DNA of 28,068 bases from a virus (lineage: Duplodnaviria > Heunggongvirae > Uroviricota > Caudoviricetes), in the IMG/VR virus record IMGVR_UViG_2663762948_000001, positions 1 through 28,068 of that record; one strand, written 5' to 3'. A program made the translations under genes and the position numbers. Shown one piece after another: positions 805-17,016 of this stretch (position 1 is its first letter; the number at the start of each line of letters is the position of its first letter). Under the pieces are notes generated by a model, which had not been told where the DNA came from, did not search any database, and saw only the letters and a list, made by a program, of their open reading frames with translations.

Positions 805-1515
805 TTAAATAAAATTCTGATGTCTAAGAATCTTCATCGTCCTTTCCTGCCAGTAGCCACCATACGGCACGCGTTGGCTCAGATGTCCGTACAGGTGGTG
901 CAGCAGCATATTGCCCTCCAGCAGAATTCCAGCGTGGTTCCACTTATCAGCCTGGACCTGCATGATCACCATATCGCCGGGTTTCGGTGGCCCGTCGAAT
1001 TCCCGGAATCCGCACTCATACCAGCAATCCTGATAGAAGTTGTCCGGATAGTCGTTTTCCCACCAGGGATAATCAACCCGGTAATCGTGGAGCTCGATAC
1101 CATGCGTTTGCCGGAAATAGCTCATTACCAGCCCCCAGCAGTCGAAGTGTCCAAGCACAAACGGACGCTCCAGCAGTGGCAGTTCTCCGCGCGGCTGGAT
1201 GGTGCGTAAATCCCCCTCCGGCCAGCTCACAATATGCCAGGGTAAAAGCGTTGCGTCGCATTGCGCTTTATCCAGTTCGCTCGGCTGCGTTGTGGCGTCA
1301 GGGTGACTGTGAACGATGGCGATCACCGTTCCCCAGTCCTCAGCAGCTGCGTAGTCTTCGGGGCAAAGGACAAAATTGTCCTCCGGCGCCGCGGCAAGAT
1401 TCCGGCACGGGAAATAACGTTCAACGCGGCTTTTCTGCGCCACCACGCCGCAACACTCAAGAGGATATTCAGCTGCAGCATGCGCCATAATCGCATCTAT
1501 GGTTTTCTGACGCAT
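805..1515 (-). CDS. K: Tail assembly protein K (JAB/MPN plus NlpC/P60-type)
   Basis: 236 aa; ECCG and HSHP motifs typical of JAB/MPN and a Cys/His C-terminal half; ATG start overlaps the L stop; position matches lambda K. Confidence 0.8.
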   Translation of the reverse strand: MRQKTIDAIMAHAAAEYPLECCGVVAQKSRVERYFPCRNLAAAPEDNFVLCPEDYAAAEDWGTVIAIVHSHPDATTQPSELDKAQCDATLLPWHIVSWPEGDLRTIQPRGELPLLERPFVLGHFDCWGLVMSYFRQTHGIELHDYRVDYPWWENDYPDNFYQDCWYECGFREFDGPPKPGDMVIMQVQADKWNHAGILLEGNMLLHHLYGHLSQRVPYGGYWQERTMKILRHQNFI

Positions 1516-13777: not shown

Positions 13778-14263
13778 TTATCCGTGCTTGGGAAAGGCGA
13801 TCAGGTTGTCGTCCTGGTCCTGATGCTCGTTTTTGGTATTCCGTGCATCACGATCGTTCTGATTACGTTTCTTCTGGTCGCGACTTTCGCCGTTGGTTGC
13901 GTGGGAGTGGATCTGGAGGTCGCGGCGCTGAGCCAGGATAGTTCGTTGTAGCTCAACAATCTGCTTGCGTAGGTCTTTGATAAGCCCTTCGTCGCGGCCC
14001 TCTCCGCGAATTCGCTCTTCTTTGCGTAAATCCTTGCGTAAAACGGTGATATAGAGCTGATTATTAGCAAGTTCTACGGCGGCTAGCAGGTCGGCAGGCG
14101 TCCAGCTGTCCAGAGCTTTCGATCTGATATTGTCATGCCAGAATGGTTCGGCTTTTTTCTCCAAACCTGCATGGGACGGCGGATCGATGGTGTCCACAGC
14201 TGCATTTTTCATGGCCTGAACCGCTGCCGCCGAACTGTCGGAACGGATTCGTTTATCTGCCAT
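13778..14263 (-). CDS. Terminase small subunit
   Basis: 161 aa, highly charged C-terminus, immediately upstream of the large terminase. Confidence 0.7.
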   Translation of the reverse strand: MADKRIRSDSSAAAVQAMKNAAVDTIDPPSHAGLEKKAEPFWHDNIRSKALDSWTPADLLAAVELANNQLYITVLRKDLRKEERIRGEGRDEGLIKDLRKQIVELQRTILAQRRDLQIHSHATNGESRDQKKRNQNDRDARNTKNEHQDQDDNLIAFPKHG

Positions 14264-14319
14264 ATGTCAACACCTTAAAACTAAAAAAATCGGGTTAGCG
14301 TTAAATTCAAACTTTGGCG

Positions 14320-14447
14320 GCGGTCATTTAGGGCAAAGGTTTTGAAGATTTGATCCCCCCCCTGCCATGAATGCGATTCATTCTCATTTGATATCGTTGC
14401 ATTTGAAATGATTTCACATGATAGATAATCGACTTGCCGCCGCCGCG
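14320..14447. other. Candidate cos region
   Basis: Non-coding gap between the HNH/small ORF and small terminase, with inverted GC-rich elements GGCGGCGGTCA (14324..14334, plus) and GCGGCGGCGGCAAG (14445..14432, minus) that resemble lambda cosN GGGCGGCGACCT, and a C8 tract at 14355..14362. Confidence 0.35.
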
Positions 14448-14651
14448 CTATGCCGAATGTTTGTCTACCTGTTCGAGTTTGTGATCGCCTTTCCCATACT
14501 CGGACCACACATGTCCTGAGACGGTCAATGTCGGTACGTCCTCGCCTACGGTGTGGGAGAACTGGATAGACGTTACGCGCTTCATCTCCACGCCATCAAT
14601 CGCCAGCTGAACAAACTTACCGTCTCGGTATTCAATGATGAGGTCTTTCAT
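14448..14651 (-). CDS. Hypothetical small protein
   Basis: 67 aa; ATG 14651..14649 overlaps the HNH stop by 1 nt; no recognisable motif. Confidence 0.45.
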   Translation of the reverse strand: MKDLIIEYRDGKFVQLAIDGVEMKRVTSIQFSHTVGEDVPTLTVSGHVWSEYGKGDHKLEQVDKHSA

Positions 14652-15004
14652 TACGTGCTCCAGTGAGACGCAGGATCGAGCGGGTAGCCGTTGGCATCAC
14701 AACCGATTACCGCGCCGCTCTTCTCCATTCTCTGTTTCGTTGAGTCATGATGCGCTTTGCACAGTGGCTGCCAGTTCTCTTTACTCCAGAACAGGAGCTG
14801 TGCTTTCGATATGGCCAGAGGGTTACCTGACTTAAGCGCATCTTTCAGTTTGTGGGGCACGATATGGTCGACCACCGTTGCTGGTGTTATGCGCCCCTGC
14901 TGCTCGCACATCACACACAGTGGGTGCTGCTGGAGAAAACGCAGACGGGCCTTATCCCATCGGCTGCCATATACGCGGGGCTCTTTGTTCATGCCAGTCT
15001 CCAT
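14651..15004 (-). CDS. HNH endonuclease
   Basis: 117 aa with CxxC...HxxxH...CxxxH spacing typical of HNH; adjacent to cos and terminase as in HK97-like phages. Confidence 0.8.
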   Translation of the reverse strand: METGMNKEPRVYGSRWDKARLRFLQQHPLCVMCEQQGRITPATVVDHIVPHKLKDALKSGNPLAISKAQLLFWSKENWQPLCKAHHDSTKQRMEKSGAVIGCDANGYPLDPASHWST

Positions 15005-15384
15005 GCACGGCGGCGTTCTGGTTCATGACCAGTTTGTAAATCTCTAACTGGAATTTCTGTTCTTCAGTCATGGGAATAATCTCTGCCATTGTTGGCTCCG
15101 TTTATCCGTTAAAAGGGATATCAGTTAAGTTATCCCGTGTAGGGTATAAGCCATTGTCGAGACCACTCATTGAATTGCCTCTGCAATAACCGATGTCTTT
15201 CCATCAGTCCGCCACCACAAAGAATCTTTTTTGCCATAAGGCAGGAGGTTTATCTTTCAGTGGCTGCCAGTGTTATTTCCCCACTTTCTGGCTTGGGTTG
15301 TTTCGCGGTGCTGCCGTTAATTAGTGACCAGAAATTAACTCCGGTTTCATTATCAAGCCCACCCGCAGATGAGCTTTGTAATGG

Positions 15385-15642
15385 TTACTTCGCTTTTGCT
15401 TCCGCTCGCTTACGCCGGCGCTCTTCTTTCCTCTCGGCTTTTGCCATGTCCATGAATGCCTGCATGATCGAGTTCCGCATCATGTAGCTGACAAAGTGAT
15501 GGTTGACGCAACCGTTAATACGGAGTTGCTCGCCAAACTCATCCACCGAGGCCAATGCTTCCATCATGCCCTTCTCGCCTTTCATGAACTCTGAGAAGTC
15601 GCGCCCCGCTCTGGAGGCGCATTCTATTATTCGGGTGCTCAT
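15385..15642 (-). CDS. Hypothetical protein with basic C-terminal tail, translationally coupled to the KilA-N gene
   Basis: ATG 15642..15640 lies 2 nt after the KilA-N stop; product MSTRIIECASR... ends KAERKEERRRKRAEAKAK. Confidence 0.45.
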   Translation of the reverse strand: MSTRIIECASRAGRDFSEFMKGEKGMMEALASVDEFGEQLRINGCVNHHFVSYMMRNSIMQAFMDMAKAERKEERRRKRAEAKAK

Positions 15643-15644
15643 GA

Positions 15645-16373
15645 TCAGGCCGCCGCATAGAGCAATTTCATCTGCCCTTTCACCGGGAATGCCGACATGC
15701 AACGCGCTTCGAAATCACGATAATCAGAGCACCCATTGGCAATGCTGGTAACGGCAATGATCTGTCGCTCAACCAATGTCAGCGCGTCAGGTTTAAGGTG
15801 CTGATGGATTTTGTCTCCCGCAGCCAGCCGTCTTTTAACCTCTGCATATACTTCTGGTGGTAATACCGGGCCATATACCCACTTGGCACTGATCATCCCA
15901 AATAGTGCTGGGCGACGACCTGGTCGATGGCGGGGCAGCCCTGACATTTTGAACATCGCAGAATAAAACGGATCGCTAAACCTCTTTTCCCATGGCTGAG
16001 ATTTATCCAGAAGGAAAATAGCCTTTATTCTTTCATCGTCGATATGATGAACGGAACCCTGAATGATTGCGTCAATTTGCTCATCACACCAGATCTCAAA
16101 ATCTACAGAAAGCCATCGAGCAAATCTGACCGCCAGTTTTGGGTGAAGCCATGTTCCGCCGCCACGGTCTTTGCGAGCGCGGCTGGTTTTTACATATGTG
16201 ATATTCCCATATCTACTCTTTAACGCCTCGATGTAACGGACAGTCTCAGGAAGCCTAAGCCACTGAGCCGGCTCCTTGTTGAACTTGTCAGCTGCCGCAG
16301 TCGCGTCAAACCAGCCATCGTCAGAAAAACGCATGGGATGGCCTTCGAAATCAATCGGGATGATATTGGACAT
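15645..16373 (-). CDS. KilA-N domain protein
   Basis: Probable start MSNIIPIDFEGHPMRF at ATG 16373 (the ORF track start at 16448 is GTG); the N-terminal region has the KilA-N/APSES-like pattern ...TWLHPKLAVRFARWLSVDFEIW. Confidence 0.65.
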   Translation of the reverse strand: MSNIIPIDFEGHPMRFSDDGWFDATAAADKFNKEPAQWLRLPETVRYIEALKSRYGNITYVKTSRARKDRGGGTWLHPKLAVRFARWLSVDFEIWCDEQIDAIIQGSVHHIDDERIKAIFLLDKSQPWEKRFSDPFYSAMFKMSGLPRHRPGRRPALFGMISAKWVYGPVLPPEVYAEVKRRLAAGDKIHQHLKPDALTLVERQIIAVTSIANGCSDYRDFEARCMSAFPVKGQMKLLYAAA

Positions 16374-16523
16374 CGTATTTACCTTTTTGGTGATATGAGC
16401 CAGTTCTCGCAGACATGGACAGCCCAAGAGCGGCACGATGTAAGCCACCGTCCTGTCTCTGTCTCATATCCCGAAAAGCTCTTGGTTGATATGCGCACGA
16501 GAATGCGCGTTTACTGCGGACAT

Positions 16524-16546
16524 AAAAAAGCCCCGCATCGCGAGGC
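16524..16546 (-). terminator. Intrinsic terminator downstream of Rz
   Basis: Minus-strand RNA has stem GCCUCGC/GCGGGGC with loop GAU, followed by U6. Confidence 0.55.
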
Positions 16547-16578
16547 TCATTAAATTGACTTTGTGATTTGCAAAAAAA

Positions 16579-17016
16579 TTATTTCAGGCATTGCGTCCTG
16601 ATGTATTCCTGCAGGTAGTTAACCTGCGCGGTTATCCTGTCGATTCCACTTCGGAGACGGTAATAATTGAGTTCAGCATCTGCTGTAAGTCTTGGGCTTT
16701 CTCCATCGCCCATGCTGCTGGCTCCGGTCGTTGACTTTGTACAGGTGGCGGCGACTTGCAGGCGCTTACGACCAGCAGAAACATCAGCACGGAGACTTTC
16801 GATAGTCGCGTTAGCATCAGCAAGCTCCTTTGTGTATCTGGCGTCAAGTTCTGCTACATCACGTTGACGCTTCTGCATGTCAGCGATTGTGGATGTGGCT
16901 TTATCGCGCTGCTCTTTGTAGGTAATGGCGTTATCACGGTAATGATTAACAGCCCATGACAGGCAGACGATGATGCAGATAACCAGAGCGGAGATAATCG
17001 CGGTGACTCTGCTCAT
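16579..17016 (-). CDS. Rz: Rz i-spanin
   Basis: 145 aa; N-terminal TM helix, then periplasmic coiled-coil; ATGA overlap with R; lambda-type position. Confidence 0.85.
16632..16817 (-). CDS. Rz1: Rz1 o-spanin lipoprotein embedded in Rz (+1 frame)
   Basis: Embedded ORF with signal peptide and lipobox (LLVVSAC), then a proline-rich region [14 protein letters not shown]. Start chosen at the internal Met preceding the signal peptide. Confidence 0.65.

Follow-up and report, generated by a model that had tools for sequence, protein, structure and literature searches.

What do the two genes that stand between the lysis genes and the cos site of an HK97-like phage encode, and how are they expressed? 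The question is raised by a 28,068-nucleotide (nt) stretch of Caudoviricetes DNA (IMG/VR record IMGVR_UViG_2663762948_000001; hereafter the window, whose coordinates are used throughout, every feature of interest lying on the minus strand), in which a first-pass annotation had noted a KilA-N domain gene coupled to a small basic-protein gene and had regarded the two as a moron in the place where lambda carries bor. In our analysis the pair appears as the coding part of a self-contained, exchangeable cassette in the late operon, which would be transcribed late, gated at translation and encode DNA-binding accessory proteins, a reading to which we assign a probability of about 0.6. The leader RNA in front of the pair, with seven covarying helices of which one covers the Shine-Dalgarno sequence and one is a pseudoknot, is a conserved structure that is absent from Rfam 15 and apparently undescribed.

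Architecture of the cassette

On the minus strand, the cassette runs from a terminator (16548–16522) through the leader, the KilA-N + P63C gene and the coupled gene for a protein of 85 amino acids (aa) to a closing hairpin:

16522..16548, minus strand: intrinsic terminator, GAGCCUCGCGAUGCGGGGC followed by U6, 3′ of Rz; 5′ boundary of the cassette
16508–16374, minus strand: leader RNA (~130–150 nt), between the terminator and the 242-aa gene
15645..16373, minus strand: KilA-N + P63C gene, 242 aa plus stop; equivalent of HK97 gp73
15385..15642, minus strand: 85-aa gene with basic tail (phrog_875); equivalent of HK97p61 and HK620 hkbL
15348..15382, minus strand: closing hairpin, AGCUCAUCUGCGGGUGGGCU, adjoining the 3′ end of the small gene; 3′ boundary of the cassette

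The two open reading frames (ORFs) are not a chance pair, since both proteins match full-length PHROG families (phrog_1136 for the KilA-N protein, E 1e-122; phrog_875 for the small protein, E 1e-53, positions 1–85 of 85) and the DNA is 98–99% identical in the HK97-like phages mEpX2 (99%), HK446, HK022 and HK97; mEp234 matches the window at the same level. The arrangement of the two genes is as first noted, the ATG of the small gene following exactly 2 nt after the KilA-N TGA (TGAtcATG) and the 85-aa protein ending in the Lys/Arg-rich sequence KAERKEERRRKRAEAKAK.

The KilA-N ORF has its stop codon at 15647–15645 and, in its longest form, opens at GTG 16448, which is why the first-pass annotation let the pair extend to 16450. 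To judge from the sequence, the true start is almost certainly ATG 16373: an AAAGG Shine-Dalgarno motif stands 9 nt 5′ of it, its equivalent is kept in 75/75 unique homologous leaders, and the DNA upstream is conserved RNA structure and not coding. Several annotated or predicted KilA-N ORFs of 263–267 aa (for example mEpX2_064, mEpX1 gp61 and our sequences P0121–P0123) begin inside the leader (16374–16448), an extension that is probably an annotation artefact.

A conserved RNA structure in front of the start codon

A conserved non-coding block surfaced when the DNA 5′ of KilA-N genes was compared in a promoter search, and in the window, where a covariance-model search finds the leader in a single copy, it has the following elements:

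16493..16508, minus strand: P0 hairpin GCGCA-UUCUCG-UGCGC, the 5′ end of the leader, ~15 nt past the terminator
16371..16504, minus strand: covariance-model match (cmsearch, model R1, 102 bits, E 5e-24), ending at the ATG
16479..16485, minus strand: pseudoknot strand a, CCAAGAG, which pairs with a′
16424..16430, minus strand: pseudoknot strand a′, CUCUUGG, within the innermost loop
16474..16478, minus strand: 5′ strand of helix b, CUUUU, an anti-Shine-Dalgarno that pairs with AAAAG of the Shine-Dalgarno region
16382..16387, minus strand: Shine-Dalgarno region AAAAGG, the 3′ strand of helix b
16404..16410, minus strand: unpaired bulge GCGAGAA (consensus YGNGA) between helices f′ and d′ (alignments A6 and A7)

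Past P0 the structure covers ~110 nt up to the start codon and consists of the nested helices b (a CCUUU-type strand paired with the AAAGG Shine-Dalgarno), c, d, f, g and e, the stem being broken by a conserved bulge of 6–7 nt (YGNGA), and the 7-nt segment a, directly 5′ of b, forms a 7-bp pseudoknot with a′. The P0 stem occurs in several variants in which, judged by eye, changes on one side are compensated on the other (UGUGCA/UGCACA, UGUGCC/GGCACA, UGCC/GGCA and GCUC/GAGC).

Covariation was analysed in a set of 75 unique leader sequences. In a structure-blind MAFFT alignment of 44 leaders, 78.8% of the cells are paired as compared with 65.9% in shuffles, and the covariation score of 0.429 (0.220 when shuffled) was reached by none of 500 shuffles; when the partner columns are slid by 1–3 positions the score falls to 0.06–0.21, and double-sided changes are present in 26 of the 33 pairs. 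A covariance model of the nested helices with 61 distinct sequences yielded similar figures, and in its alignment helix b, which covers the Shine-Dalgarno, is paired in 84.6% of the cells with double changes in four of its five pairs. The pseudoknot helix was deliberately kept out of this model and tested separately: of 60 unique leaders, 49 have at least six contiguous Watson-Crick pairs, the helix sequence occurring in about 20 versions, and the cross-sequence control has a mean of 3.9. The frequency of G-U pairs speaks for an element that acts as sense-strand RNA and against a palindrome in the DNA. The minimum free energy of the window leader is −49.2 kcal/mol (z −3.0); the fold of this energy, an alternative that was set aside, differs from the family consensus and is specific to the variant of the window. 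Besides two alternative sets of pairings, the family conserves unpaired nucleotides, namely the YGNGA bulge, a GGG and a GAG. Compensatory changes together with a fixed position and strand relative to the start codon characterise this element as a structured cis-regulatory leader.

Rfam 15, including its C4, sok, isrK, riboswitch and ribozyme families, gave no match in window positions 14000–17000, nor any match on the leader in 14 diverse loci at E values up to 1. A literature search returned no description of the leader, which is weaker evidence of novelty than the Rfam result, and a survey of 224 motifs (PMC5737381) mentions none for KilA, Rha or antirepressor genes.

The leader is shared by Bro-network and HNH genes

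HK97 gp73 is a two-domain member of the Bro network, a set of domain-shuffling phage proteins (Bro-N, KilA-N, Rha, ANT, AntA, P22_AR_N/C, ORF11CD3 and T5orf172) reportedly first described by Iyer, Koonin and Aravind in 2002. The term is used here as in PMC10111431. The leader was found in more than 170 phage loci, in front of KilA-N, Rha, AntA, P22_AR_N, T5orf172 and HNH genes, with all of the model matches (173/173) on the gene strand and ending at the start codon. It accompanies the gene behind the lysis genes in HK97-like, P22-like, lambda-like, Salmonella, Yersinia and Gilliamella prophages and is also present inside the tail operons of Klebsiella phages. The model also matches in front of genes outside the retrieval set: the HK106 T5orf172 gene and genes for HNH_3+AP2 and HNH_3+zf-His_Me proteins. 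A DNA-pattern scan of viral contigs that was blind to the downstream gene returned 80 loci, 80/80 of which were confirmed by the model, with these downstream ORFs:

KilA-N+ORF11CD3: 43
KilA-N+P63C: 7
HNH_3: 6
T5orf172: 1
other: 30, mostly Phage_pRha, with a few P22_AR_N or AntA/AntB and some very short or truncated ORFs

The leader is the common front end of the Bro network and of free-standing HNH genes; our literature search found no leader RNA shared across this network. Two lower-scoring matches (41–44 bits) precede a TerB-domain gene and an unassigned 75-aa ORF.

Leader-led cassettes also stand in tandem, for example an HNH gene and then a KilA-N gene, each with its own leader, as in L133 (51–177 and 1378–1503), L137/L139/L174 (~484–632 and 1373–1503) and L093 (1004–1128 and 3377–3509). 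A different arrangement is seen in L012 (2553–2680), where an inserted HNH_3+AP2 gene separates the leader from the KilA-N+P63C gene.

Cassette boundaries and the promoter question

In a terminator scan, nine pairs followed by a T run were found at 16522..16548, and the records of mEpX1, HK75 and HK106 annotate a terminator at the same place; an equivalent hairpin with T run is present in 55 of 68 unique regions upstream of leaders, mostly 16–18 nt before the leader match. Matches to the module in Escherichia coli genomes start at ~15348–15371 and end at this terminator, the homology to PhiR49_1 and Klebsiella phage RAH1 stops at the closing hairpin, and directly behind KilA-N genes without a partner gene there is the same AGCCCAC..GUGGGCU hairpin, in those cases with a U run. 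The cassette occurs at three kinds of genome site, and its mosaic boundaries are sharp.

The first-pass annotation had proposed promoter mapping downstream of the Rz terminator. A consensus scan for sigma-70-like promoters (at least 9/12 positions, gene strand), which is a weak test, found none in the leader of the window or in 14 other leaders, and the genes are co-oriented with the late operon; since the covarying helices begin with P0 only ~15 nt after the upstream terminator, there is also no room for a promoter. A lambda-bor-like moron with a promoter of its own receives no support from these results.

A two-state model for translation of the cassette

With RNA structure starting ~15 nt behind the terminator and no promoter in sight, transcription would come from upstream and enter solely by terminator read-through, i.e. 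as Q-antiterminated late transcription, and the cassette genes would be silent in the lysogen. In a predicted OFF state the long stem b-c-d-f-g would mask the ribosome-binding site, while in an ON state the pseudoknot a:a′ would keep b, c and d single-stranded and the Shine-Dalgarno free. The pseudoknot and helices b/c/d would be mutually exclusive because the a–b linker (0–9 nt) cannot span the 16–25-bp b/c/d stack, and both pairing sets would be under selection. Since the polymerase reaches a′ earlier than d′, c′ and b′, an initial ON state might arise and then decay to OFF; alternatively, a factor might shift the balance between the two. The small gene has no good Shine-Dalgarno of its own and starts 2 nt after, or overlapping, the upstream stop, so that its 85-aa product would probably arise through termination-reinitiation, at a constant ratio to the KilA-N protein. 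It may then act together with the KilA-N protein on DNA, as a detachable helical and basic module of the Bro network. Because HK75, HK106 and HK633 lack the pair and the HK97 small gene is frameshifted, the cassette appears to be dispensable for lytic growth; most likely, it would serve phage–phage or phage–prophage interactions, or its own spread.

A broader proposal, for and against which we see the odds as even, is that the leader constitutes an undescribed class of cis-regulatory RNA: a translational gate switching between pseudoknot and long stem and serving the whole Bro network, as well as HNH genes that stand on their own, within late operons of enterobacterial phages and phages related to these, perhaps responsive to a signal (ligand, protein or coupling to transcription), with the 85-aa protein as an unnamed free-standing module of the network.

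Several points weigh against the reading as a late, translationally gated cassette. The two-state model is derived from a steric argument, and late Q-dependent transcription as well as masking of the ribosome-binding site would follow from sequence features. For the window leader, the fold of lowest free energy (−49.2 kcal/mol) differs from the consensus with masked Shine-Dalgarno (−46.8 kcal/mol, pseudoknot uncounted), and in a few subfamilies (L167, L172) helix b ends beside the Shine-Dalgarno and not over it. A consensus promoter scan is crude, and weak or activator-dependent promoters would escape it. The linkage of the small gene described below could reflect only its requirement for an upstream translated gene. 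Finally, most of the loci sampled belong to enterobacterial prophages that are close relatives of one another, and independent events are therefore fewer than the counts suggest.

The small gene is an optional add-on

In order to follow the pairing of the two genes, we collected ~100 small-gene loci from phage records, viral contigs and genomes. At every locus with upstream DNA the small gene stands directly behind a Bro-network gene, with a 2-nt gap or a 4-nt overlap. One type of partner is KilA-N+P63C with the 2-nt gap, including divergent copies at 45–51% identity; another is the 165-aa KilA-N+ORF11CD3 protein (HK620 hkbK) with an ATGA overlap, which is also found in PhiR49_1 and RAH1, and the two types are only 22% identical within the KilA-N domain. 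Distant homologues of the small gene follow Rha+ANT or Rha in P22-like immI regions (L103, L111), and others follow either KilA-N type inside siphovirus tail operons; divergent examples of the linkage are L012, L013, L014, L104 and L105. A C-terminal motif shared by the different upstream partners was looked for and not found. The linkage of this small domain to the network is apparently unrecorded in the literature.

The reverse dependence does not hold: 21 of 79 viral KilA-N+P63C loci carry the small gene and 58 do not, and it is missing from 3 of the 15 KilA-N+P63C genes at 95% identity or more, with L115, L125 and L126 encoding KilA-N proteins 99–100% identical to that of the window. In its place there is otherwise a ~120-aa gene in tight coupling (phrog_24826), or the terminator hairpin alone, and profile and six-frame searches revealed no hidden small-gene homologue behind KilA-N+P63C in Salmonella, Yersinia, Klebsiella and Gilliamella. 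The small gene is thus an optional add-on dependent on a Bro-network gene and not an obligate partner, because it always follows such a gene while most KilA-N+P63C genes lack it. Of the proposed two-gene unit, for which co-conservation across prophages had been named as a check, what remains is the dependence in this one direction.

Some further occupants of the locus deserve mention. The phrog_24826 gene (~120 aa, no Pfam match) is a mutually exclusive partner that lies 1–11 nt after the KilA-N+P63C stop or overlaps it (L115, L126–L128, L134 and L096, 3800–4096; distant versions in L172 and L177–L184). In L188 (2361–2510) a sok antitoxin RNA (RF01794, 97 bits) is located ~40 nt 3′ of the KilA-N+P63C gene, which places a hok/sok module in the partner position. 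Actinobacillus phage vB_Apl-pPE4 (PP818812; L008, 1880–2566) has a KilA-N+ORF11CD3 gene that matches HK620 hkbK at 100% identity, the small gene beside it being truncated, and a contig from a Candidatus Nanosynbacter metagenome-assembled genome (L009) carries the enterobacterial KilA-N+ORF11CD3/small-gene pair; both occurrences represent either recent transfer or contamination in assembly or binning.

The two proteins

The KilA-N domain named in the first-pass annotation is present in the larger protein (PF04383; hidden Markov model match above the gathering score, E 1.2e-22, residues 8–105), and the P63C domain proposed for checking was found behind it (PF10546; 42.9 bits at a cutoff of 26.1, E 7.8e-11, residues 117–192). 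Both domains are present in all 120 homologues among the matches listed, truncated ones excepted. The C-terminal domain of gp73 is all-helical, with weak DnaD/DdrC-like matches. Domain and fold searches recognised no nuclease motif or fold in P63C or the small protein, and the pair contains no HNH, GIY-YIG, LAGLIDADG or PD-(D/E)xK domain by which it could be counted among the homing endonucleases. Sequence searches of the PDB gave no match for either protein and the NCBIfam search gave none; in PADLOC-DB 2.0 no system model was matched, the nearest results being candidate PDC-S22 (E 9.5e-5, over ~30 residues of the KilA-N core) and a marginal QatB (E 0.017). The literature search returned no paper combining KilA-N and P63C, none on HK97 gp73, and ORF11CD3 only within a domain list. 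Both genes are already catalogued as phage genes, albeit uncharacterised, so that confirming them adds little. The KilA-N+P63C allele of the window is found in 18, and the small gene in 427, of 5426 complete E. coli genomes.

For the small protein, a bundle of three helices is predicted, the third of which continues into the basic tail: the best AlphaFold2 model (predicted local distance difference test score 92.7; 66–78 for the other four) has helices at residues 3–20, 26–42 and 48–84, and a fold search with it returned generic helical-bundle matches only. It has no Pfam family, and phrog_875 is narrow (137 clusters at 90% identity, 19 representatives at 50%). A weak match to phrog_4284 (PHROG E 3e-6) leads to the HK106 "GIY-YIG" protein, which has a Pfam T5orf172/MUG113 domain and whose gene fills the same genome slot as the pair. 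A profile of the N-terminal 77 residues of T5orf172 proteins matches 27 of 27 sequences of the small family (E 5e-10 to 4e-6), the reciprocal search matches all members, and hhalign aligns the two over residues 24–73 with a probability of 93% (E 2.9e-7), pairwise BLASTP alone being weak (E 0.04). Because of this profile homology to the T5orf172 N-domain, we assign the small protein to a helical domain that stands alone here and in other proteins is joined to the nuclease-like T5orf172 domain.

Two further candidates in the small gene were rejected. A zinc site formed by C8, C45 and H48/H49 is invariant in two alignments, but the homologue P0242 has Ser in place of C8, which leaves the site unsupported. 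A cis-acting DNA or RNA element in codons 8–16 had been considered because these are nucleotide-invariant in seven sequences, but three divergent homologues show synonymous changes. The block itself (window 15600–15626) comprises 27 nt, TGCGCCTCCAGAGCGGGGCGCGACTTC, synonymously invariant in those seven sequences at protein identities down to 54%; it lies at a mosaic junction and might mark a hotspot of recombination, not an element with a function. In the HK97 record (AF069529; L003 ~1100–1330, minus strand) the small gene has a +1 G insertion that alters the C-terminal third and leaves a protein of 77 aa without the basic tail, which is either a real inactivation in a laboratory phage or a sequencing error in the 2000 record. 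The Leclercia copy of the small gene is a pseudogene.

Neighbouring genes and related phages

The position between lysis genes and cos given in the first-pass annotation holds, with holin, lysozyme and Rz upstream and HNH, TerS and TerL downstream. The neighbouring features are:

17796–17473, minus strand: holin, upstream of the pair
17489–17013, minus strand: lysozyme, upstream of the pair
17016–16579, minus strand: Rz, with Rz1 nested inside
15090..15347, minus strand: intergenic spacer, context only, outside the cassette
14952–15089, minus strand: 45-aa ORF, apparent DUF2560/P22-Orf80 remnant, 3′ of the spacer
15004–14651, minus strand: HNH endonuclease of the HK97 gp74 type
between the HNH and TerS genes, minus strand: 67-aa ORF
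14263–13778, minus strand: TerS, followed by TerL

Alignment to the end of the HK97 record places cos at about window position 14313. The similarity of the 45-aa ORF to DUF2560/P22 Orf80 is confined to the first 24 residues of the latter, and the ORF runs into the 5′ end of the HNH gene; it looks like a remnant at a mosaic junction and not like a gene. The 300 bp behind the pair, previously described as unexplained non-coding DNA, are indeed without a gene (15384–15090) in four annotated phage records, but they are not filler: the spacer 15090–15347 is a conserved intergenic segment homologous to the hkbL-hkbM intergenic region of HK620, and parts of it, especially 15101–15168 just upstream of the DUF2560 remnant, are present in 2559 of 5426 complete E. 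coli genomes. In mEpX1 and a number of E. coli genomes the spacer is interrupted by an inserted Gp49-family gene. The RNA fold of the spacer has a z of −2.76 relative to shuffled sequence, and searches with Rfam and with the leader model gave no match in it.

The order Rz, terminator, KilA-N+P63C gene, 85-aa gene, spacer, HNH gene (gp74) and cos is the same in HK97 (gp73/HK97p61), HK022 (p55/p56) and mEpX2 (064/065), whose records give no function, some of them omitting the small gene or extending the KilA-N ORF (792 or 804 nt versus 729 nt). HK97-like phages differ widely in what they carry between Rz and the packaging genes, a hypervariable slot with other content in HK75, HK106, HK633 and mEpX1. 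HK620 hkbK-hkbL resembles the pair in its slot after Rz, leader family, small protein (96% identical) and downstream spacer, but its upstream protein has 165 aa, an ORF11CD3 C-terminal domain and 22% identity in KilA-N, and the genes overlap by 4 nt where the window has a 2-nt gap. Within the Bro network the small protein behaves as a further module, free-standing here and fused to T5orf172 in HK106.

Among known regulatory systems, antirepressor translation in phages P1/P7 and P22 is controlled by c4 RNA and sar, respectively, which are separate antisense or processed RNAs of the immI regions. The leader would resemble these in the predicted control of translation at the RNA level, by pairing of the ribosome-binding site of antirepressor-type genes, but it is a cis leader in late operons, and none of 15 leaders matches Rfam C4 at E values up to 1. 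A closer likeness is offered by homing-endonuclease genes of T4 (I-TevI, mobE), which are restrained by RNA structures sequestering the ribosome-binding site and by terminators (PMC2988022): the shared logic would be that of a selfish or accessory DNA-binding or nuclease gene that depends on upstream promoters, has its Shine-Dalgarno buried in a stable structure and is accompanied by terminators that limit read-through. However, T4 uses simple gene-specific hairpins, whereas here a single pseudoknotted motif of ~130 nt is common to many unrelated genes of enterobacterial and Gilliamella phages. The defence protein BstA shares an N-terminal KilA-N domain in a prophage accessory gene, but its C-terminal part, genome position and mode of expression are different (PMC8585504), and no sequence match was seen outside the KilA-N core.

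Alternative explanations

Overlapping with the reading as a gated late cassette, and compatible with much of the evidence, is the idea of a selfish homing-type cassette: mobile genes for site-specific DNA-binding or nuclease proteins would spread between co-infecting phages, with terminator and leader minimising the cost to the carrier, and the KilA-N/P63C and small proteins would together be the recognition or cleavage machinery. The identical leader in front of HNH_3+AP2, HNH_3+zf-His_Me and T5orf172 genes fits this idea, and so do the three kinds of genome site with sharp mosaic boundaries, the HNH gene inserted behind the leader in L012, the fusion of a small-protein homologue to a T5orf172 domain and the similar regulation of T4 homing endonucleases (PMC2988022). 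Yet nothing nuclease-like is recognised in P63C or the small protein, and the leader-led genes are mostly of the antirepressor type (Rha, AntA, P22_AR_N) and not known nucleases, so that we regard homing as possible, if rather doubtful.

A classic moron, expressed from its own promoter in the repressed prophage and of benefit to the lysogen through superinfection exclusion or abortive infection, as for BstA, would account for the location in the lambda bor slot and for the terminator upstream and hairpin downstream that morons have, and the pair is indeed absent or replaced in HK75, HK106 and HK633. The KilA-N domain of BstA (PMC8585504) and the weak PADLOC match to PDC-S22 point in the same direction. 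An unlikely explanation is nevertheless what it remains in our view: no sigma-70-like promoter was seen between terminator and ATG here or in the 14 other leaders, P0 begins so close to the U run of the terminator that the transcript must start upstream, the cassette is also found within tail operons, in the same orientation as the late genes, none of the PADLOC system models matches, and bstA adjoins the repressor gene (PMC8585504), unlike the pair here.

P1 KilA is toxic. A toxic KilA-N protein of this kind, neutralised by the small protein in the manner of a toxin-antitoxin system, would agree with the tight coupling and with the strict dependence of the small gene on an upstream Bro-network gene. 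It is very improbable given that 58 of 79 KilA-N+P63C genes, among them the near-identical L115, L125 and L126, do without the putative antidote, and that HK97 propagates with a frameshifted small gene. Type II systems are defined by obligate co-occurrence and cognate pairing, whereas here only 21 of 79 genes have the partner and the same small protein stands behind three or four unrelated partner architectures, including some that share no domain (KilA-N versus Rha+ANT), unlike a cognate antitoxin; the homologue fused to a nuclease domain speaks for a module used in targeting or assembly and not for an inhibitor.

Implications

Few phage accessory genes without a known function are as common as those for Bro-network and KilA-N proteins. 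That a shared, strongly covarying leader is predicted to mask the ribosome-binding site of such genes and that a terminator precedes it suggests that their expression is deliberately restricted, and the leader offers a concrete experimental handle on them. A leader masking the ribosome-binding site of an accessory cassette is already known as a kind; what is found here is a conserved and widely shared motif. Its presence on HNH and T5orf172 genes would tie antirepressor-like and selfish nuclease genes into one regulatory and mobility class. The small protein can for the first time be placed in evolutionary terms, as an N-terminal module that T5orf172 proteins can detach or keep, and it has a partner relationship that can be tested. 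If the leader responds to a signal, it would represent a new class of regulatory RNA in the well-studied model phages HK97, HK022 and HK620.

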